DNA of 52,615 nt from Escherichia phage vB_EcoP_Bp7: sequence record NC_079181.1; one strand, given 5' to 3'. Below the pieces are notes generated by a model, which was not told where the DNA came from, made no database searches, and saw nothing but the letters and a program-made list of their open reading frames with translations. This document shows positions 1 to 52,615 of the stretch, in pieces; the first letter of the stretch is position 1, and each line of letters opens with the position of its first letter. A program made the position numbers and the translations under genes.

Positions 1-1941
1 ATGACTACTATCACCACTCAAACTATCAAATCCGTTGTTCCTGCTATCACTGCTCTGGTATATCGTGCCAAAGAGAAACAGAACTATATGCAGCCTCAGA
101 CTTGTGCTATTGCTGCCTTAGCCATCTTCAAGATGATGACGTCTTTCACTCGTGATGACGTTGTTCCTGCCATCGCGATGGTTGAGCTGGCTTCTGCTTC
201 TATTGCTGATGCCAACCGTTATAACAACGATTTGAAAGCAATGCACTATGTTGACCCAGCTATCAACCTGATTGGTTTGGCTAAGCACTTTGGCTTCATC
301 ACCATGAACGAAGACAAGTCATTCCAACAAACTGATACATGGGTTGAACTGGTTACAACCAAAGACACAGCAGTGCCATTCACTGAGCGTGTTACATCTG
401 AATCTCGTCGCAAGCCTTTCGTTAAAGGTGGCAAAGTTAAGCCATCCAAAACTCTGAAAGCTGCAATCGAATTCCTGCAAGATACTGAGTACCATGTGGA
501 GACTGAGATGGTTCGCATCATCCAGTCCATGCTTGAACAACGTACCTACGGTGGTTTGCAGATGCCAGAAGCAATCCAGACTGAACTCCATGTTTGGAAC
601 AATGCTGTAGCAATGATGAATCAGGACACACTGTATTCTGATTACTTTGCTGATAACCGTGGTCGTCTGTATCACGTAGCATGTGCTGGTCCTAACCCAC
701 AATCATCTGACTTTGCTCGTTGCTTGTATTCTCACAATGTTGAGAACATCGTTAAGAAGTTTAACGAAGATGGTTCTACTACCATTGCATACAACATGTT
801 CATGGCAGAGCTGGAAGATATTTCTGGTGGTGAATGGTGCAGTGCTAAGCGTTTAACTTATGTTGCTCAGAATCCAGCTGGTTCACTTGCTCGCATGATG
901 AACATGCCTAAAGCTGAACGTCCTTCTAAGCCATTCACTTATGTTCGTCTGGCTCTGGATTGGTTCAAGTTTGAGACTACAGGTGAGTGCGATTCTCGTG
1001 TAGGCTTTGGCTTAGATGCTAAATGTTCTGGTACTCAATATCTGGCATTCATTGCTGGTAACATGGAAATGGCTCGTGCAACAGGTCTGGTTGATTCTGA
1101 GACTAAAGCATCTGACCCATACCAGTTGAGTCTTCGTGAACTGTTGAAGCTGCTGGACAAGTCTTCAATGAAGCCATCTCCTGAAATCATGGATGAATTC
1201 TTGAATCCGAAAGCTGGTCGTAAGTTTATCAAAACTCCGTACATGGCTATCCAATACGGTGGTGGTAAAGCTGCACTAACTGGTTCATCTGACTTCATCA
1301 GCTACATGACAGAAGCACTCCAGATTCCTATGGAGAAAGCAGAAGCATTTGCTGAACTGTGTGTGGAAGCAATCCATAACGCATTGGGTGCTAAGATTAA
1401 CATGTTCATTGAGAAAGCTGCTGAAGCTGCATACAACCGTTGTGTTGAACTTGGTAAAGAGTACATCACATATCGTCACACTGATGGTCAGGTTGTAATG
1501 AAGCCTTGCTTCCCATCTCGTGAAATCTGTGAGGCATTCAGCATTCGTGTTGATAGTCAAACTCGTGTTATCTTTGGTCAGATTCAGGAGAATAAGCCTT
1601 GGACCATTCGTGAATCCAATCCAACTAAAGAAGAATTCAAGCGTACTTTCGTTGTTAACTACATTCAGGGCATTGATGCACTTGTTGCTCGTACTGTTGC
1701 AGTTAAAGCTAAAGAAGCTGGTCTTCGTGGCTTCACTTCAATCCATGATTGTTTCCGTTGCTGTTTGGCAGACGCTCCACGTATGATGGAAGTTATTCGT
1801 GCAGCATATGTTGAAATCTTCGTAACCAACAATCAGTTCGAGAATCTGTCTAAGCAACTCGGTGGCATTCAGATGTATCATGAGAACATCGTAACTGAAG
1901 AGCTTCTGATGAGCGAACACGCTTACTACTTCTGTCAATAA
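1..1941 (+). CDS. T7-like single-subunit DNA-dependent RNA polymerase, compact (646 aa)
   Basis: Palm motifs in translation: motif A GFGLDAKCSGTQYLAF, motif B RKFIKTPYMAIQYGGGK, motif C SIHDCF. ATG at base 1; a GGAG lies 8 nt upstream across the window junction (52604-52607) if the sequence is circularly contiguous. Confidence 0.9.
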   Translation: MTTITTQTIKSVVPAITALVYRAKEKQNYMQPQTCAIAALAIFKMMTSFTRDDVVPAIAMVELASASIADANRYNNDLKAMHYVDPAINLIGLAKHFGFITMNEDKSFQQTDTWVELVTTKDTAVPFTERVTSESRRKPFVKGGKVKPSKTLKAAIEFLQDTEYHVETEMVRIIQSMLEQRTYGGLQMPEAIQTELHVWNNAVAMMNQDTLYSDYFADNRGRLYHVACAGPNPQSSDFARCLYSHNVENIVKKFNEDGSTTIAYNMFMAELEDISGGEWCSAKRLTYVAQNPAGSLARMMNMPKAERPSKPFTYVRLALDWFKFETTGECDSRVGFGLDAKCSGTQYLAFIAGNMEMARATGLVDSETKASDPYQLSLRELLKLLDKSSMKPSPEIMDEFLNPKAGRKFIKTPYMAIQYGGGKAALTGSSDFISYMTEALQIPMEKAEAFAELCVEAIHNALGAKINMFIEKAAEAAYNRCVELGKEYITYRHTDGQVVMKPCFPSREICEAFSIRVDSQTRVIFGQIQENKPWTIRESNPTKEEFKRTFVVNYIQGIDALVARTVAVKAKEAGLRGFTSIHDCFRCCLADAPRMMEVIRAAYVEIFVTNNQFENLSKQLGGIQMYHENIVTEELLMSEHAYYFCQ

Positions 1942-5995: not shown

Positions 5996-6058
5996 TTTCC
6001 TCAACCACTTTTGTAATGAGAGTGGTTGCTGAATATTATTAATTAACTTGGAGCATTT

Positions 6059-6349
6059 ATGAAACAACGTACTCGTTTACAACGTGACCCAGCCACAGGT
6101 CGCTTGTTGCCAGCATACTTAAAAGTTGGTGACTTAGTTTACACTCGTGACTTTGCTTTTGACATTTGCCCAAGCAAAGCATATGAAGTTCTTGCCACCA
6201 GCTTGTCTGGTCCTAAAGTGATATTCGGTGCACTTGAGCCAATTCAATTAACCGGAACTCAGTTTGTCATTAAAGACGAATCTGGTTGCAATCGTATCTT
6301 CAATCTCGAAGGTGGATTATCCAAATGGGAGAAGGTGAAGCGTGGGTAA
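6059..6349 (+). CDS. hypothetical protein (96 aa)
   Basis: ORF with GGAG upstream; preceded by an 8-bp stem hairpin at 6002-6028. Confidence 0.5.
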   Translation: MKQRTRLQRDPATGRLLPAYLKVGDLVYTRDFAFDICPSKAYEVLATSLSGPKVIFGALEPIQLTGTQFVIKDESGCNRIFNLEGGLSKWEKVKRG

Positions 6350-6575
6350 GAATTATATCGAAATGTTTAAGCAACTGTCCATCAATGGGCAGGAGTTCTT
6401 GCTAAACGATGCAAGGCAAGATATTGAGCTGTCTGATAAATACAGCTCATCATATCAGAGAACTATTGTAAAATGGACGTTCTCTTACATATCTTACAAT
6501 CTTCCAGGAGAAACGCTTGTAATTAGTGGTTCTGGCGACTCCGTATTATCCGCTTTGGAGAAACTAAAGCAATGA
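6342..6575 (+). CDS. hypothetical protein (77 aa)
   Basis: ORF overlapping the upstream gene end. Confidence 0.45.
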   Translation: MGKNYIEMFKQLSINGQEFLLNDARQDIELSDKYSSSYQRTIVKWTFSYISYNLPGETLVISGSGDSVLSALEKLKQ

Positions 6576-6859
6576 ACAAGAATTCAATCTTACGTTATGT
6601 TGGTAAAACAAATTACAGCTTTACCTACGGTAAGAAGTACAAAATCGTCGCAGGTCGTGGTGACGGGGTTCCTCGCAACAACGGTACACTCGGTGCGTAT
6701 ATTCAATCTCCTTTGGGTTTTGTCGTTAATGATGATAACCGCAATTTATGTTATCGTACATTCTCCGATAATTGGGAACTTGTAAAAGATTCTGGTGAAG
6801 TTAGTTGGTATAAACCTGAATCAAACATGGACCCAATTCCAATTTCAAAGGTGATGTAA
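6572..6859 (+). CDS. hypothetical protein (95 aa)
   Basis: ORF with ATGA overlap to the previous gene. Confidence 0.5.
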   Translation: MNKNSILRYVGKTNYSFTYGKKYKIVAGRGDGVPRNNGTLGAYIQSPLGFVVNDDNRNLCYRTFSDNWELVKDSGEVSWYKPESNMDPIPISKVM

Positions 6860-7059
6860 TGCTTGTAAATACACACCTATTCAGTCACAACAGTTTTGCA
6901 ACAGAGAACATTGATGCAGGTTGGACACTTTGGTTTGTGGAAGCTCGTGGTAATCCGTATTGGGATAATGTTCAATCTATGCGCTTTCCAGTGAAGCCAA
7001 CCAAAAAGCAAATACGCAAATTGCGTAGAAAGTTCATAAACGATTGCAAGTCCTGTTAA
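6859..7059 (+). CDS. hypothetical protein (66 aa)
   Basis: ORF overlapping the stop of the previous gene. Confidence 0.45.
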   Translation: MLVNTHLFSHNSFATENIDAGWTLWFVEARGNPYWDNVQSMRFPVKPTKKQIRKLRRKFINDCKSC

Positions 7060-7101
7060 ATTAACAATGGGCATCTCTTGCAGGTGTCCATGATTAATCT
7101 A

Positions 7102-7120
7102 ACATTAGTTGATTGTGAAT
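7102..7120 (+). promoter_or_regulatory. phage promoter-like motif P2 (acattagttgattgtgaat)
   Basis: Part of a ~65-bp intergenic module (7055-7120) duplicated at 7446-7509. Confidence 0.55.
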
Positions 7121-7138
7121 AATAATTGGAGAATAAAG

Positions 7139-37265: not shown

Positions 37266-40200
37266 ATGAAGACAATGGCTAATCAAAAAGATTTAATGAA
37301 GTTGAGCGTTAATGAGTTAATTGCATTAGGCTCTCAAAGCGGTCTGACTTTCCACGCTGGTATGAAGAAGTCGCACATGGTTCAACAACTTAGTGCGAGC
37401 GCTGCTTCGGGATGGCTGGATACAAATGCAGAATTAATGGGTGGGTCGTTTGAAGACGACAGTTTAATTACTGAATCTCTGGGCGACTCTTCCATGATTT
37501 CAGACGCTGCCCACATTGCACAAGTGCTTTCAAGTGCAGGCTACACAGAAGCATTTCATGCAGCAATGAATGGCCCATCACACCATGTAGAAGCTGTTCA
37601 CGCATACATGGAAAGGCTTGGTGTCAACACAGACGATGTGTGGATGCACATGCCAAAGCCAAATCCGAACTTACCGCAAGGTAGTTTCAATATGCTTAAT
37701 GCCTATATGCGAGATACTTTGCAAGGGCATCAAGACATTATGCCGGAAATCCCAGGCCATTATGCTGGCGATATTATGGCAGAATACTCCACCAACCGTG
37801 GAAACATTGCTGACTCTTATAACTACATGGCCCACATGTATGTTGACCGAGAGCAATACAGCAATCATGAACAATACGCAAGAGACATTAGTCGAGTTGC
37901 CAAACGTCTGGAACGAGAGTTACCCTCAGCCTTTAAGGAAGTTGGGTATACATCTGCATCTAATGTAGGAAATAAATCGGCCCCACATATTTCTTACATG
38001 GACGCACTCCCTCAGATTGGCTCTCCTTCAATTGTTTCTGGCATTGCACATCCTCGTGCGCCCCTTAACGCATCTGGACTTCCTCTCGGTTCTTATGGTT
38101 CTGGCATAAATCCAGAATACTCCCTCACTGCATCACTAACTGGTGGCACAGGTTGGAGCGAACCAAGCAAGGCTTTGTATTCTTCTATTAGTGAAGCTGT
38201 TAAATCTGCTGCCAAAGTTTATTCTGGCTCCAAAGGGATGCTGAATACCCGTCACGAAGTATCTGACCGTGACATGATTATGGATAGTGCAACACGCTAC
38301 ACAGATTTGGAAGAAGCCAGGAGCGGGTACGAAAACCTTCGTTCTGAACTTGCAGATGAGCCAGCTTATTCTGCATCAAGTGTTCGAGCTATTCTCGAAA
38401 ACACTTATGATAAAATGGATGCCGAACCTGTTCGCATTCCAAAGATGAAGGGAGCTTCACAGCGAGTCGATAAAGATTCACTGTCAACATCTACAGATTT
38501 TACAGCACAACTTGGGGAGGCCACCAATTGGAACTCTGCAAGAATGCGTCGTGAGGAACTTGCGATTGCAAATATGGATAGTGCTGGATTCCGTGATGTA
38601 TCAGACTATGGTACAGGACGTTCCGAGTCCCCCGTCCGATTCCATGACTTAGAACAGGGCAGCCAAGAGTGGCTGGACTTCCGTAAAAATTATGACATAA
38701 CTGGTTCAACTGTTGGAACCTTCTTAGGAAACAACCCATATACCCGACCTTGGGCTGGGATGATTGATAAGATTGGCTTATCTCGTAGTAAAGAGCACAG
38801 CGATTTCACCAAGAAGATGTTCGCTGATGGTCACAGGACGGAAGAAGAAGCACGCGCTCGTGTTGGTAAGGAATTTGGATTCGATATCAAACAAACTGGC
38901 GCTATAACAAATGACAACTATCCCGCCTTCATGTATTCTCCTGATGGTCTTATTGGGGATGATGCCATTTGGGAGCACAAGAATCCGCAAAGGGCTGGTA
39001 AGTTTGCTGACCTTCTTAAAGGCGACCATCCAGATTACATGGACCAAATTCAATTTGGCTTGCACGTTTCTGGTCGTTCTCGTGCTCTGTTCTCACAAAC
39101 CATCAACGACGAAACACGTTCACAATGGATTGAGAAGGACGAAGGATGGTACGAAAGAAACCGAAATCGCCTTGATTCTGTGCTTGGCCGTCTTGATGCT
39201 GGGCGAGAGTTTGTTAGAAACAATGCTGGGCTAGGGCGAGAAGAGCTGATTGCTGGTGCAAGAAGTGCAATGACTGGTGATGGAATCTGGAAGGATATTC
39301 GTCAAAAGTCCACTCGTGGCTATTCTGCTGCTGCTGGTACTCCAGAAGACCCGTTTATTGGCTCACGCTCTTCGTACAACCCAGAAGCATCCTACTCTGA
39401 CTACAAGCCAAACTTTGTAATGCACGAGCAAAACTTTCCAGCAACCACAGGAAACGGTGATACTGGAAATGACTCGATGGCATTGTCTGTTAAGAAAGGT
39501 ATTCTTGCTGCCCAGGAAGAAAACAGGCAGAAGGGTATTAGTGCAGATGCAGACTTTGATGGCAAAGCCGACTCAATGGGCTGGAACCGTGAAAGATTTG
39601 ATGCTGCCAATGGCGGTGGATATTCTGGCGGTGGCGGTGGTCGTGGCGGCAACTTCACAAGTGGTGGCAACTACTATGATGACTACGGTCGCATGGGTGG
39701 TTCGTTAGCTGCTGGCATTGCTGGTGGCAGTATTGGTTCAGCAACCAACGGAGTTATGCAAGCATTGATGGCGACTCCTGCTGGGCGTATGGCTGCTGTA
39801 GGCATTGGTGCTATTCAGATTGGCAATGAAGCTGCTGAATACATGAATGACTTTATCGGCAACTCGCTTGATGCTGGTGTGATAAATCCTAATGAATATT
39901 CTTCCATGTCGCAAGGCTTGGAGATGTTAGGACTCAACTCACAACAAGCGGCACGTCTGAATCAAACCACACATAGTGCCTACAACACCATGCTTAACGG
40001 CGACCCCAGCGCCGCTGTGAACATCGTTCGCGGAAGTAGGGGATTGCTCACCATAGGTGATATTCGTGCGACAGGCGGCGACCCTGTGGCCCTAGCTCGC
40101 ATCATGCAGGAAAGGGGCAAGGAGCGTGGCTGGAGTCAGGCCCGTATCGCAGGTGCTGCCGAAATGGCTGGCCTGAATGGGATGGCCCGTGCCTACGACC

Positions 40201-40991
40201 GCACGGAATACAGCCATGAGCAAGCTGGTTCGGTGGTAGAAGCGGGTAGAAACTCTGACTTTGCCGAAGGCATGGCTCAGTCAGAAATGTTGCAGGGAAG
40301 CCGCGTACGGATGCTGCCGAGCTACAACGTGCCACAAAGTGTCTTATCTAACGGTGCTTCTGTATTCGAAGCTGGTAGCGATGCACTTGACGGTGTACGA
40401 ACTGGATTCAACAAAACACGAGAATTTGCTGGAAGTGTTTACGACTTTATCGCTCAAGAAGAATCTGGCGGTAGTGAATATAACAGGGATGGTTCTCGTG
40501 TAACAAGTCGTACTGGTGCTCGTGGAATAATGCAAATTCTTCCTTCAACTGCCCGTGACCCAGGATTTGGAATCAAGCCGTCTGATGGAACTCCAGAAGA
40601 TGATGCACGAGTTGGTCGTGAATACTATGACGCAATGTACAAGCGTTATGGCGACCACGAAAAGGCAATGGCTGCTTACACCGATGGTCCTGGCACTGTT
40701 GACAAAGCTATTGACAAGAATGGGCTGGATTGGCTAACTGCTGTTCCTGCACAAGCACAGAATCGCGTTAAAGCATTCCGTGAATGGTCCAAGTCTTCTC
40801 AGTCTTTGGAAGAAGGTGCTACAGGGTTTACCCGTAATGGAATGTCATACGGACAAACCCAAACTGTTGTTAATGTTAAGATTGATGCTAAGGTCAACAA
40901 CCAGACTGCTTCTGCTACAGTTGCAATTCCTGGTGGCCAGACTGTGACTCAACAAATGAACATGAACAACGGTGCGCAACAAAGAAGGTAA
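37266..40991 (+). CDS. tape-measure-like protein with embedded YqaJ-like PD-(D/E)XK nuclease domain and C-terminal lytic transglycosylase domain (1241 aa)
   Basis: Rho_N/SAP-like N-terminus; YqaJ-like EQGSQEWLDFRKNYDITGS with SPDG...IWEHK (D-x10-ExK) around 38630-39090; Gly-rich hydrophobic segment; SLT-like QEESGG...TGARGIMQILPSTA around 40450-40750. Confidence 0.7.
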   Translation: MKTMANQKDLMKLSVNELIALGSQSGLTFHAGMKKSHMVQQLSASAASGWLDTNAELMGGSFEDDSLITESLGDSSMISDAAHIAQVLSSAGYTEAFHAAMNGPSHHVEAVHAYMERLGVNTDDVWMHMPKPNPNLPQGSFNMLNAYMRDTLQGHQDIMPEIPGHYAGDIMAEYSTNRGNIADSYNYMAHMYVDREQYSNHEQYARDISRVAKRLERELPSAFKEVGYTSASNVGNKSAPHISYMDALPQIGSPSIVSGIAHPRAPLNASGLPLGSYGSGINPEYSLTASLTGGTGWSEPSKALYSSISEAVKSAAKVYSGSKGMLNTRHEVSDRDMIMDSATRYTDLEEARSGYENLRSELADEPAYSASSVRAILENTYDKMDAEPVRIPKMKGASQRVDKDSLSTSTDFTAQLGEATNWNSARMRREELAIANMDSAGFRDVSDYGTGRSESPVRFHDLEQGSQEWLDFRKNYDITGSTVGTFLGNNPYTRPWAGMIDKIGLSRSKEHSDFTKKMFADGHRTEEEARARVGKEFGFDIKQTGAITNDNYPAFMYSPDGLIGDDAIWEHKNPQRAGKFADLLKGDHPDYMDQIQFGLHVSGRSRALFSQTINDETRSQWIEKDEGWYERNRNRLDSVLGRLDAGREFVRNNAGLGREELIAGARSAMTGDGIWKDIRQKSTRGYSAAAGTPEDPFIGSRSSYNPEASYSDYKPNFVMHEQNFPATTGNGDTGNDSMALSVKKGILAAQEENRQKGISADADFDGKADSMGWNRERFDAANGGGYSGGGGGRGGNFTSGGNYYDDYGRMGGSLAAGIAGGSIGSATNGVMQALMATPAGRMAAVGIGAIQIGNEAAEYMNDFIGNSLDAGVINPNEYSSMSQGLEMLGLNSQQAARLNQTTHSAYNTMLNGDPSAAVNIVRGSRGLLTIGDIRATGGDPVALARIMQERGKERGWSQARIAGAAEMAGLNGMARAYDRTEYSHEQAGSVVEAGRNSDFAEGMAQSEMLQGSRVRMLPSYNVPQSVLSNGASVFEAGSDALDGVRTGFNKTREFAGSVYDFIAQEESGGSEYNRDGSRVTSRTGARGIMQILPSTARDPGFGIKPSDGTPEDDARVGREYYDAMYKRYGDHEKAMAAYTDGPGTVDKAIDKNGLDWLTAVPAQAQNRVKAFREWSKSSQSLEEGATGFTRNGMSYGQTQTVVNVKIDAKVNNQTASATVAIPGGQTVTQQMNMNNGAQQRR

Positions 40992-41023: not shown

Positions 41024-41042
41024 ACATTAGTTGAATATGTAT
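41024..41042 (+). promoter_or_regulatory. phage promoter-like motif P7 (acattagttgaatatgtat)
   Basis: Conserved motif 23 bp upstream of the 41065 gene. Confidence 0.5.
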
Positions 41043-49936: not shown

Positions 49937-50278
49937 ATGGAACGATTATCCATTCAAATGTTTGTGGACCTGATGCACCAATATGGCGTATGGCATGGAT
50001 TATTGGCTGGTCTTACGGCTTTAATTCGTGGGGCATATGAGAGTGAAGGCTTAAGCAAGGCGCTGCTGGATGCGGCGCTGTGCAGCTTAATCGGCCTGTT
50101 TGCCTTTCATGTTGCTGGCACATTTGAGACTTTCACGACTAACGTCACTATGCAGTTAGTATTGGCTATCGTTATTGGTGTCATTGGTGCAAACCTCATT
50201 ATCACAACTGTCAGGGAAAGTTTCTCTGGCGCAATCAAACAACTTAACCCTTTGACGTGGTTCAAGAAGGTACGATGA
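49937..50278 (+). CDS. putative holin (113 aa, three predicted TM segments)
   Basis: ATG at 49937 with AAGGAAA upstream; three hydrophobic stretches; directly upstream of the endolysin. Confidence 0.5.
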   Translation: MERLSIQMFVDLMHQYGVWHGLLAGLTALIRGAYESEGLSKALLDAALCSLIGLFAFHVAGTFETFTTNVTMQLVLAIVIGVIGANLIITTVRESFSGAIKQLNPLTWFKKVR

Positions 50279-50295
50279 AATGATAAGGAACTCGA

Positions 50296-50850
50296 ATGCT
50301 ATCATTCAAAGTCCTTGCAGTTCTGGCAGCTTTAGTTCACATCAACGCCCCAGCTTCGGTTGGGGCAGTGAATTCTGCTATTACAGATTTTGCAAGTCAT
50401 TCCTATTTAAATGGAAGTCTGAAACTATCTTCTTCACAACGCAAAGAGCTAGAATGCTATACTAAAGTTATTTGGTATGAAGCTCGCGGAGAAGACAAAC
50501 ATGGAAAGATTCTGGTAGCTAATGTCGTCCGTAATAGAACCAAGTTCGGGAAGCCATTCGCTAACACCGTTTGTGATGTTGTCTATCAACGCAATCAATT
50601 TGCATGGACACGAGAAGCAAAGAAGAAGAATGCTCAATGGAAGCATGTAGCAAAGATTAATTATGCCACGGAACAACAACAAGTTCTGGACACCATTAAT
50701 GTTGCAATCTCTTTTGTATTATTTAATCAACCCTCTGTCACCAAAGCAACCCACTTTTGTACAGCATCGGAGAAGTGCAACTTCAAGAATGTCAAAGGTT
50801 TGGGACGTTACGGTGGCCACAAATTCTATGAGTATCTAGGAAATCTGTAA
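50296..50850 (+). CDS. endolysin, SleB-like cell wall hydrolase with N-terminal signal/SAR-like segment
   Basis: Hydrolase_2/SleB signature [22 protein letters not shown] ... VVYQRNQF; N-terminal hydrophobic [19 protein letters not shown]. Confidence 0.7.
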
Positions 50851-51950
50851 TGGCTTACACTACCTTTTCACAAACCAAGAATAACCAACTACTAGAGCCA
50901 ATGTTCTTTGGTCAGAACGTTAACGTTGCTCGATATGACCAACAGAAGTATAGCATCTTCGAGAAGTTAATCGAAAAGCAGTTATCTTTCTTTTGGCGAC
51001 CTGAAGAGGTTGATGTTAGTCAAGACCGAATTGACTATGCTGGTCTTCCTGAATGCGAGAAGCACATCTTCACCAGCAATTTACGATACCAAATCCTGCT
51101 TGATTCCATTCAGGGACGTGGACCAACCACAGTTTTGCTACCAATTGTGAGCATTCCTGAGCTGGAAACCTGGATTGAAACTTGGTCATTCTCAGAGACA
51201 ATTCACTCCCGTTCTTACACGCATATTATTCGTAATATTGTCACAGACCCAAGTGTAATTTTCGACGAAATTGTGGAGAATGAGCACATTAAAATGCGTG
51301 CAATTGGCATCTCCCAATATTATGACGAGCTTCAACATCTAACTTCCATGTGGCATCTGCATGAAGATGAAGTAGACCTTCGTGAGCTTAAGAAGAAGCT
51401 GTATTTATGCCTCATGTCCATTAATGCACTAGAAGCAATCCGCTTTTATGTCAGTTTTGCTTGCTCATTTGCCTTCGCTGAACGCAAGTTGATGGAAGGG
51501 AATGCCAAGATTATTCGCTTAATTGCTCGTGATGAAGCACTCCATTTGACCGGAACTCAACACATGCTGAACCTTCTTGCAAGCGGTGTTGATGACCCAG
51601 AAATGGCAGAAATTGCTAAAGAATGCCGTCAAGAATGCCAACTAATGTTCGAAAATGTAGCCCAACAAGAGAAAGATTGGGCTGATTATTTGTTCAAAGA
51701 TGGCTCAATGATTGGCCTAAACAAGCAAATTCTGTGCGGATATGTGGAATATATCACGAATATTCGTATGCAAGCAGTTGGATTAGATGCTCCATTCAAA
51801 GGTGCTACTAACCCGATTCCTTGGATTAACGCATGGCTGAATTCGGATGCTGTACAGGTTGCTCCACAAGAAACGGAAATTAGTTCGTACCTTGTCGGGC
51901 AGATTGATTCCGAAGTGGACACCAATGCTCTGGGCGGATTTGAGCTGTAA
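50850..51950 (+). CDS. nrdB: class Ia ribonucleotide reductase beta subunit, host-like
   Basis: Near-identical over most of its length to remembered E. coli NrdB ([11 protein letters not shown]..., [40 protein letters not shown]-terminal [14 protein letters not shown]). Confidence 0.92.
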
Positions 51951-52092
51951 CGATTATATGTGAGAAGAGATTCGATGCGTTAGCGTCGTTTCTCTTTGAG
52001 CTAGAATAAGACAAGTAAATTAAATATTTATTTATTCCCAATATTGCTACAATATTAAGAGTAGTATTAGGAATGCGTAAAGTTAAATGGTA

Positions 52093-52149
52093 CATGGTCG
52101 GTCAACTGTATCTGGATAGTAATTCGTTCATGGTCGGTCAGCTGTATCT
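52093..52149. repeat. two 21-bp direct repeats (catggtcggtcaRctgtatct)
   Basis: Copies at 52093-52113 and 52129-52149. Confidence 0.7.
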
Positions 52150-52208
52150 CCTTCGGAGAAGTTATCTCGCCGAAATTTGTTCGAATGGAAAACCGACTAT
52201 TAAATAAA

Positions 52209-52233
52209 TTTTTTTTTTTTTTTTTTTTTTTTT
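52209..52233. repeat. 25-nt poly(T) homopolymer
   Basis: Uninterrupted T run preceded by TAAATAAA. Confidence 0.9.
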
Positions 52234-52330
52234 CAATATTGCTACAGAATTAATGAGACTCAAATTGTTTCAATATTATCGAGACTCGAATTGTTACGAT
52301 ATTAATGAGACTAGAATTGTGGCAATTGCT
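52234..52330. repeat. three tandem degenerate ~30-bp repeats (core atattaNNgagactNNaattgt)
   Basis: attaatgagactcaaattgtt / attatcgagactcgaattgtt / attaatgagactagaattgtg. Confidence 0.65.
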
Positions 52331-52531
52331 CACTTCGCTCGCTTTATATTATAATTTTATTTTTGGGCCAGCGGGGAGGGGAAGCCCAACGTCCTATCGG
52401 ACTTAAAATACGGTCCCTACTCCAACTTTTTCCTACAGCCTATCGGCTTTCAAACAACACCAAGTTAGGCGCTTCGCTTATGGGTCAAGGTCAAAGTCTC
52501 CGTGCTGTTGTAACAATGGCACAGGTTTGTG

Positions 52532-52550
52532 ATATTAGTTGGACGTGAAT
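52532..52550 (+). promoter_or_regulatory. phage promoter-like motif P8 (atattagttggacgtgaat), upstream of the RNAP gene if circular
   Basis: Conserved motif about 65 bp before the window end; RNAP ATG is at base 1. Confidence 0.5.
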
Positions 52551-52615
52551 TGTGTAATGGCTACGCTATTATAATCCGTTTCAGTTAAATCATACACAAT
52601 CTTGGAGACTTACAA

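Follow-up and report, generated by a model that had tools for sequence, protein, structure and literature searches.

Genes and genome organisation

The window, that is, the whole stretch of DNA analysed here, comprises 52,615 nucleotides and corresponds to the sequence record NC_079181.1 of Escherichia phage vB_EcoP_Bp7. Towards its right end it harbours a gene for a ribonucleotide reductase (RNR) subunit, located directly after the lysis genes. The genes referred to below are the following:

1..1941, + strand: single-subunit RNA polymerase (RNAP) gene, with its ATG at base 1 (PF00940)
49937..50278, + strand: holin, 113-aa form starting MERLSIQMF (lambda-family holin match; a 342-nt holin is found in relatives)
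50296..50850, + strand: endolysin, directly upstream of nrdB and overlapping it by 1 nt (open reading frame, annotation of relatives, weak SleB-like match)
50850..51950, + strand: nrdB, class Ia ribonucleotide reductase beta subunit, 366 aa (open reading frame, NF006576, PF00268)

The nrdB gene is the last one of the unique region of the genome, and the window continues for 665 nt beyond it. Over its final 2.6 kb the window shares 91-95% identity with Escherichia phages Bp10, JL1, flopper, Mangalitsa, ST32 and others, and the related phages are classified as Chaseviridae, Cleopatravirinae, Carltongylesvirus. Collinearity with flopper extends over 95.2% of the window, and the alignment is continuous across the junction from nrdB to the RNAP gene. 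Since the final base of the window aligns beside the start codon of the flopper RNAP, both window ends are contiguous in the phage. The same layout has been published for phiEcoM-GJ1 and ST32, with the RNAP as ORF1 and the RNR beta subunit as the last ORF (PMC6266442). The window is the complete, re-oriented genome of a Carltongylesvirus-like phage.

Sequence similarity and predicted structure of NrdB

The protein encoded by nrdB matched the NCBIfam family NF006576 with 697.8 bits (cut-off 346), residues 1-366 aligning on profile positions 1-376, and Pfam PF00268 with 165 bits (cut-off 33.6). Its top sequence match in the PDB was E. coli NrdB (E = 6e-199). The BLASTP comparison with E. coli NrdB, for which the reference sequence was taken from the nrdA-nrdB-yfaE locus, gave 299 identities in 376 positions (80%; 81.7% of the aligned columns) and a single 10-residue gap, which lies in a surface hairpin. 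T4 NrdB is 51% identical to the window protein. The annotated NrdB proteins of phages Bp10, flopper, ST32 and Mangalitsa share 99.5% identity with it.

The AlphaFold2 model of the window NrdB, of moderate overall confidence (mean pLDDT 66.8, pTM 0.73), shows the R2 ferritin-like helical fold, with TM scores of 0.74-0.80 against E. coli beta chains, and its closest fold match is also E. coli NrdB. The initial annotation, made from the sequence alone, had delimited the open reading frame correctly, with all the motifs that it quoted at the right places, and had rightly considered the protein closer to E. coli NrdB than to the T4 homologue. Its description of the protein as almost identical to E. 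coli NrdB was overstated, as identity amounts to 80% for the protein and about 71% for the DNA, the latter against all 5426 E. coli genomes. The NrdB proteins of other Enterobacterales are 88-95% identical to that of E. coli, compared with 82% for the phage protein, which is about as remote as Vibrio NrdB (80%). Taken together, these data identify the window gene as that of an authentic and intact class Ia beta subunit of the host type.

Absence of a large subunit gene

The search with tblastn, using E. coli NrdA against all six frames, could not detect NrdA in the window (best E = 1.1). Similarly, tblastn gave no NrdA match in phage flopper. The five open reading frames of at least 500 aa in the window encode the RNAP, a primase/helicase, a family-A DNA polymerase, the terminase and a tail structural protein. 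A complete phage-encoded class Ia RNR, consisting of nrdA and nrdB, is therefore not present, as the alpha gene is absent from the genome. This agrees with the initial annotation, which had reported no nrdA and had proposed that a copy just outside the window would overturn its reading; since the window is the whole genome, such a location is impossible. A YfaE-like ferredoxin was not found in the window either. The phage also encodes thymidylate synthase and dUTPase.

Functional residues and selection

The following elements of the phage NrdB are relevant for its function:

51195..51227, + strand: motif with the iron ligands E115 and H118 and the radical tyrosine Y122, aa 116-126 (alignment)
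51354..51380, + strand: HLHEDEVDL, aa 169-177, site of a 10-residue deletion of the surface beta-hairpin of E. coli NrdB (BLASTP gap)
51705..51719, + strand: SMIGL, with the counterpart of E. coli beta I297 (conserved in the alignment)
51888..51947, + strand: C-terminal tail, with the Y356 equivalent and the alpha-binding peptide (alignment)

The functional residues are numbered as in mature E. coli NrdB. All functional residues checked in the alignment (16 out of 16) are conserved in the window NrdB and in every phage copy. These include the six di-iron ligands D84, E115, H118, E204, E238 and H241, the radical tyrosine Y122, and the radical-transfer residues W48, D237, Y356 and E350. F208, F212, S211, I234 and I297 are likewise conserved in all phage copies, and the RDEALH motif corresponds to aa 227-232 of the window protein. 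The roles of the residues checked are established in the E. coli literature. A further source for these roles is PMC11447812. The di-iron ligand and radical tyrosine context described in the initial annotation is thus present, with all ligands and Y122 conserved.

Among the sequenced phage nrdB copies dN/dS is 0.01-0.07 (0.011-0.067), and dS between the two main phage alleles reaches 0.85-0.89. The gene is a long-term resident of the phage lineage and is under strong purifying selection. Among 241 alignment columns that do not vary in 19 cellular NrdBs, twelve carry a replacement that is fixed in the phage clade: K78R, T81I, S90G, V93T, A94V, N131T, D139E, I161Q, V200I, R253A, Q306G and N343A. 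Any one of these replacements, or the D369A change in the tail, could weaken the pairing with host NrdA.

C-terminal tail and contacts with the alpha subunit

The last ten residues of the window NrdB are aa 357-366, five of which differ from E. coli. Every phage copy, also in Yersinia phages, carries the pattern DT[N/D]AL[G/S]GFEL, and this fixed tail across the clade is a new observation. The hydrophobic L/F/L anchors and Y356 are retained. The GFEL ending is also found in the NrdB of Providencia, Xenorhabdus and Vibrio, where G at position -4 and E at position -2 are normal; cellular NrdBs thus share two of the five deviations from the E. coli tail. D369A and the S-to-G change are specific to the clade, and the N/D position varies within it. 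The initial annotation had called the tail altered, which holds for half of the residues, but the tail is less altered than it looks, given the cellular occurrence of GFEL and the retained anchors. The possibility that the tail tracks the host was rejected, as phages infecting Escherichia and Yersinia have an identical tail.

In the alpha4beta4 ring inhibited by dATP, beta I297 packs into the alpha cone domain; it is the one beta residue named for this contact, of which the beta hairpin is not mentioned as a part (PMC11447812). As I297 is conserved and the hairpin is not named in this contact, an escape of the phage enzyme from dATP feedback found no support.

Deletion of the surface hairpin

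The shortened surface loop noticed in the initial annotation was borne out by the single 10-residue gap against E. coli NrdB. At the deletion, the AlphaFold2 model places a helix (145-174), a two-residue turn and a second helix (177-210), with no strand and a local pLDDT of 86-90. All 21 residues of the hairpin segment are kept in 80 out of 80 bacterial loci. The phage clade contains a nested series of deletions: four residues are missing (GEGSHAGH-EISL) in phiEcoM-GJ1, Pel53, MLP1 and the Yersinia phages, seven in FXie-2024a, and ten in the subgroup containing the window phage. This stepwise series within the genus is new.

Hairpin length is altered in 48 of the 80 viral NrdB loci, many of which have an adjacent nrdA; a rule by which an orphan beta subunit loses the hairpin was rejected on these grounds. 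A connection between the hairpin and yfaE had been prompted by three cases, namely Serratia phage PCH45 (no yfaE, eight residues missing), the window clade (no yfaE, four to ten residues missing) and Pantoea phage Survivor (yfaE present, hairpin complete). This rule was rejected as well, as loci with the full hairpin and no yfaE exist among the 80 viral loci. The hairpin looks like an element that is always retained by cells and often discarded by viruses. The variants lacking four, seven and ten residues represent a natural set for probing the function of this strictly conserved cellular element.

Expression context

Three elements around nrdB are related to its transcription and translation:

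41024..41041, + strand: closest 18-nt promoter-like motif upstream of nrdB (motif count)
50838..50844, + strand: Shine-Dalgarno sequence AGGAAAT, 5 nt upstream of nrdB (read directly from the sequence)
51973..51998, + strand: terminator-like hairpin with T-rich tail, 23 nt after the nrdB stop (consensus scan)

The same Shine-Dalgarno sequence is listed for ORF79 of ST32 (PMC6266442). The final A of the endolysin stop codon TAA (50848-50850) is also the first base of the nrdB ATG (GTAATG), and because of this overlap the translation of both genes is probably coupled. A consensus scan revealed no sigma-70 promoter above chance directly upstream of nrdB. The 18-nt motif ACATTAGTTGGAWKTGAA occurs ten times in the window, always on the + strand, compared with 0.31 copies expected by chance, and probably serves as promoter for the phage RNAP. 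The copy at 41024 would then probably be the start of a transcription unit comprising tail genes, lysis genes and nrdB, with nrdB as its predicted last cistron. The terminator-like hairpin at 51973 is a single match, not above chance expectation.

The distal position of nrdB, with no promoter motif nearer than 41024, suggests late expression. Such a position in a late unit is odd for a gene supporting replication, and it is a point against a simple early boost of dNTPs.

Comparison with known NrdB proteins

The gp75 of phiEcoM-GJ1 and ORF79 of ST32, both Carltongylesvirus, are the same gene as the window nrdB, in the same slot after holin and endolysin and before the RNAP, with 91-99.5% protein identity. 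In phiEcoM-GJ1 the allele has 372 aa and lacks four residues of the hairpin, whereas that of the window phage has 366 aa and lacks ten. Dwivedi et al. 2013 reported two phages with nrdB alone, phiEcoM-GJ1 being given as nrdB only in their Table S1, and called it unknown whether incomplete RNR sets function (PMC3653736). The gene and its alpha-less state are therefore already known from phiEcoM-GJ1 gp75, ST32 ORF79 and Dwivedi et al. 2013.

Similar to E. coli NrdB (beta2, diferric-Y122), with which it is 80% identical, the window protein possesses the same fold, the catalytic and radical-transfer residues, I297 and the tail pattern. Unlike the E. coli gene, the window nrdB has neither nrdA nor yfaE adjacent to it, and its product differs by the deleted hairpin, the twelve replacements at invariant positions, the five changes in the last ten residues and phage codon usage in its gene. 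The T4-type RNR (nrdA and nrdB, often with nrdC/nrdH) also includes a phage class Ia beta subunit that boosts dNTP supply, but T4 NrdB has its own alpha alongside and is only half identical to the window protein. The T4 RNR works as a self-contained phage complex.

The search in whole genomes with tblastn revealed two further phages, Serratia phage PCH45 and Pantoea phage Survivor, that lack NrdA but possess a host-like NrdB, with 79-82% identity to that of E. coli. Both are jumbo phages, of 213 and 272 kb, respectively, and are unrelated. The PCH45 protein, 82% identical to that of E. coli, carries an independent 8-residue hairpin deletion; Survivor has the full hairpin, and a YfaE-like ferredoxin adjoins its nrdB. 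The presence of a host-like beta subunit and no alpha subunit in these two jumbo phages is new.

A host-like small subunit alone, with a host-compatible C-terminus, is likewise found in the R2-only RNR of chordopoxviruses (vaccinia F4 type). Most chordopoxviruses encode R2 alone, and in vaccinia the F4 protein combines with cellular R1 into functional hybrids via its C-terminal residues (PMC2900304). That case concerns a eukaryotic virus and enzyme and the hybrid was demonstrated, whereas for the phage NrdB the hybrid is a proposal. In summary, nrdB is a long-established, catalogued feature of the genus, for which a partnership with host NrdA is plausible, with a precedent in a eukaryotic virus.

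Age and origin of nrdB

Forty-four phage records carry nrdB at a protein identity of at least 90%. In every locus examined, from isolates of Denmark, China, Chile, Germany, Pakistan, Czechia and others, the order is holin, endolysin, nrdB and then RNAP. Presence among close relatives is not patchy, as nrdB is missing only from Loessnervirus and Suwonvirus: in these sister genera, represented by Erwinia phage Y2 and Pectobacterium phage PM1, tblastn could detect neither NrdB nor NrdA. Behind the endolysin of Y2, the corresponding slot contains two tiny ORFs, followed by the terminal repeat. Most simply, nrdB would have entered once, in the common ancestor of the Carltongylesvirus-like phages, at the right end of the unique region. 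The evidence for an old acquisition shared across the genus is new.

In a scan of one genome per species, covering 185,579 species, the best cellular identity was 80% (Escherichia, Klebsiella), and all NrdB matches were full or near-full length. A search of 5.8 billion proteins found nothing between the phage clade (at least 91%) and the bacterial NrdBs (at most 78%, by the count of the tool itself). A 494-aa 'NrdB', P0004, turned out to be an artefact: it comes from a bacterial gene in which PVSYTHLDVYKRQ is repeated in frame, and we take this repeat to be a translated sequencing adapter.

The tree was constructed by NJ on Kimura distances only, with 300 bootstraps. It recovered the phage NrdBs as monophyletic (100%) and a crown of 16 Enterobacterales that excludes them (93%). 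Enterobacteriaceae have the top cellular identities by 2-4 points, whereas the NJ tree places the phage clade outside the crown, beside Survivor (76%). The grouping with Survivor could be due to long-branch attraction or to a phage-to-phage origin.

It is possible, if unlikely, that nrdB came from another phage, for example from a jumbo-phage lineage with a host-like nrdB, so that its enterobacterial look would be second-hand. This is in agreement with the sister position of Survivor, with the beta subunit lacking an alpha in both Survivor and PCH45, and with the D-to-A change in the Survivor tail (DAF). However, Survivor NrdB shares only 79% identity with the window protein and is not closer to it than E. 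coli NrdB (82%); two long branches grouped in a distance tree may be an artefact; and Survivor possesses the hairpin and yfaE, both of which the window clade lacks.

The initial annotation had regarded nrdB as recently captured from the host, and had proposed BLAST searches for the degree of identity and the donor lineage. A recent capture from E. coli or a close relative among the Enterobacteriaceae is very improbable, even though E. coli, Klebsiella and Citrobacter give the top cellular identities (78-80%, against 75-77% for other Enterobacterales) and the N-terminal 11 residues are the same as in E. coli. The searches revealed no near-identical donor, with the DNA at 71% to the E. coli genomes and a gap between 80% and the phage clade in which neither cellular nor metagenomic proteins were found. 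Synonymous sites against E. coli nrdB are beyond saturation (pS 0.83; dN = 0.16), and the phage copies differ from each other by dS up to 0.89. The GC3 of the gene is 0.411, compared with 0.420 +/- 0.039 for 49 phage ORFs (z = -0.23) and 0.618 for E. coli nrdB, and its RSCU correlates with the rest of the phage (r = 0.67) better than with E. coli nrdB (0.26). A grouping of the phage clade with E. coli received 0% bootstrap, and the clade lies outside the Enterobacterales crown. An assembly chimera of host DNA and phage contig, which the initial annotation had named as a possible refutation and which the position of nrdB at the very end of the window might suggest, has a negligible probability, since 44 phage records carry the gene in the same endolysin-nrdB-(RNAP) order in every examined locus, with phage-like composition and only 71% identity to any E. 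coli genome.

Proposed function with host NrdA

The window phage lacks a large subunit and possesses a catalytically intact small subunit with a host-like C-terminus. A class Ia beta subunit is not known to have any activity without alpha. Because the beta subunit is intact and the phage encodes no alpha, dependence on host NrdA is the natural reading. We infer this pairing, by exclusion and by analogy, as the best explanation of the gene. Judging from the sequence comparisons, nrdB probably encodes a functional beta subunit, acquired once and long ago, which pairs with host NrdA to supply dNDPs for the phage. The literature search found no published test of the binding of a bacteriophage NrdB to host NrdA, or of its activity with it.

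According to the proposed mechanism, an ancestor of the Carltongylesvirus-like phages would have taken nrdB once, from an enterobacterial-type lineage or another phage, and the gene would have come to lie behind the lysis cassette, at the right genome end. In the infected cell, NrdB would be made from the transcripts of the phage itself and would assemble its iron-radical cofactor. It may then dock by its conserved C-terminal tail on host NrdA (alpha2). The hybrid alpha2beta2 would sustain or raise dNDP synthesis for phage replication, alongside thymidylate synthase and dUTPase; both the timing and the benefit of this step are predicted from the gene content and order.

It is improbable that the protein is not a working subunit, i.e. 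that it is a decoy blocking host NrdA or a decaying remnant of an ancestral nrdAB operon. The absent alpha partner, the apparent expression with late genes and the stepwise erosion of a surface element would fit such a role. Nevertheless, it gives no reason for the retention of the six metal ligands, Y122, W48, D237, E350 and Y356 at a dN/dS of 0.01-0.07, with dS of about 0.9. Selection keeps the radical machinery, for which a pseudogene or a protein that only binds would have no need, and this argues for an active beta subunit. Neither nrdA nor nrdB has left a trace at the locus in the sister genera, which gives no indication of an ancestral operon, and hairpin loss is also common in viral NrdBs with their own alpha.

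Beyond an active NrdB pairing with host NrdA, a wider reading can be offered tentatively, although we consider it doubtful. Carriage of beta alone would be a recurrent, selected strategy of phages in Enterobacterales, found in at least three unrelated lineages. The Carltongylesvirus NrdB would be tuned for it through the twelve replacements, the D369A and S-to-G changes of the tail and the stepwise removal of the hairpin, so that it out-competes host beta2 on alpha2 or escapes a host control or maintenance factor. If this is true, dNTP synthesis would be re-armed, and deregulated, once the host has been shut off.

Phages of the Chaseviridae are currently isolated as therapeutic agents against E. 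coli, Shigella and Yersinia, so that it would be useful in practice to know how they obtain their dNTPs and whether they are sensitive to hydroxyurea or depend on the growth state of the host. Should phage NrdB indeed form a hybrid with host NrdA, this would represent the equivalent, in a bacterial virus, of the R2-only strategy of poxviruses, and the radical-bearing beta subunit, not alpha, would be the limiting component worth carrying for a 52-kb phage.

Host-like NrdB in other viruses

Genes encoding a host-like NrdB are also present in other viruses, including two jumbo phages in whose genomes the alpha subunit NrdA could not be detected. The genes considered here are the following.

Serratia phage PCH45 (MN334766; loci L177-L181), record 124783-125889, nrdB
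Pantoea phage Survivor (PP885733; loci L182-L187), record 200502-201635, nrdB
Pantoea phage Survivor (PP885733), record 200251-200502, ferredoxin
Viral contig IMGVR_UViG_3300045988_117772 (L007, 77.7 kb), 6001-7131, nrdB

The NrdB of phage PCH45 is 82% identical to that of E. coli and lacks 8 residues of the surface hairpin, a deletion that represents an independent event. Neither NrdA nor the ferredoxin YfaE was found over the entire 212.8-kb genome of this phage. In phage Survivor the hairpin of the host-like NrdB is complete, and a ferredoxin resembling YfaE (64% identity to the E. coli protein) comes immediately after it; the search over its 271.6-kb genome did not reveal NrdA. Similarly, the host-like NrdB of contig L007 retains the full hairpin and shows 78% identity to E. 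coli. NrdA and YfaE had no match inside 6 kb on each side of this nrdB, and the contig may be a further case lacking the alpha subunit.

Possible exchange between phage nrdB alleles

Protein P0002, from the ENA metagenome collection, is 95% identical to the NrdB of the window and represents a mosaic allele. Its N-terminal half, including the hairpin shortened by 10 residues, is like the 366-aa form, and its segment ASGKDDPEMGEIAQECREECQKLFEDAA is like the 372-aa form of phage nrdB. This mosaic of the two forms suggests that phage nrdB alleles have recombined with each other.

Doubtful public records

Among the retrieved proteins, P0004 is a bacterial NrdB of 494 aa encoded in a normal nrdA-nrdB-ferredoxin locus (L094; GCA_054570795.1, JBBPFT010000007.1). 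Within it the sequence PVSYTHLDVYKRQ is repeated in frame; we take these repeats to be translated sequencing adapter, and the 494-aa NrdB was therefore rejected as an artefact of the assembly of this public genome. Locus L087 (PP952070) is labelled 'Staphylococcus phage Pel53', with Staphylococcus hyicus as host. Pel53 is a Cleopatravirinae phage whose DNA is 87% identical to that of the coliphages. Its nrdB is of enterobacterial type and its lysis cassette is in the style of Gram-negative hosts, and the assignment to Staphylococcus seems questionable.

Structural protein, promoter-like motif and genome ends

Other features of the window were the following.

37266-40991, + strand, ORF of 1241 aa, virion structural protein by annotation of relatives
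2267, 3117, 7102, 7491, 11411, 11552, 13518, 21486, 41024 and 52532, all + strand, 18-nt motif ACATTAGTTGGAWKTGAA
52094-52113 and 52130-52149, direct repeat ATGGTCGGTCA[A/G]CTGTATCT
52209-52233, T25 homopolymer
52255, 52281 and 52307, three copies of GAGACTnnAATTGT

In the 1241-aa ORF, aa 468-604 correspond to a viral recombinase/exonuclease domain of YqaJ type and the C-terminal aa 1061-1152 to an SLT lytic transglycosylase domain, a pairing that seems unusual in a tail protein.

The 18-nt motif, initially detected as repeat family D1, occurs in 10 copies, compared with 0.31 expected by chance (motif scan, up to 3 mismatches), and is probably a promoter for the phage single-subunit RNA polymerase (RNAP). 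One copy precedes the RNAP gene itself by 84 nt, on the other side of the circular junction.

Between nrdB and the RNAP gene lie 665 nt without coding sequence (51951-52615), a highly structured stretch that includes the direct repeat, the T25 homopolymer and the GAGACTnnAATTGT copies. Erwinia phage Y2 (L089/L091) and Pectobacterium phage PM1 (L090/L092), from the sister genera, have direct repeats at their termini, exact over 2608 and 2665 bp, respectively, and in both records the whole RNAP gene is inside them. No terminal repeat of this kind was found in the window, and its terminal redundancy was therefore probably collapsed in assembly. Since the 2.6-kb repeat of the sister genera starts approximately 224 nt before the start codon of the RNAP gene, the physical end of the phage genome probably lies within the 665-nt stretch.
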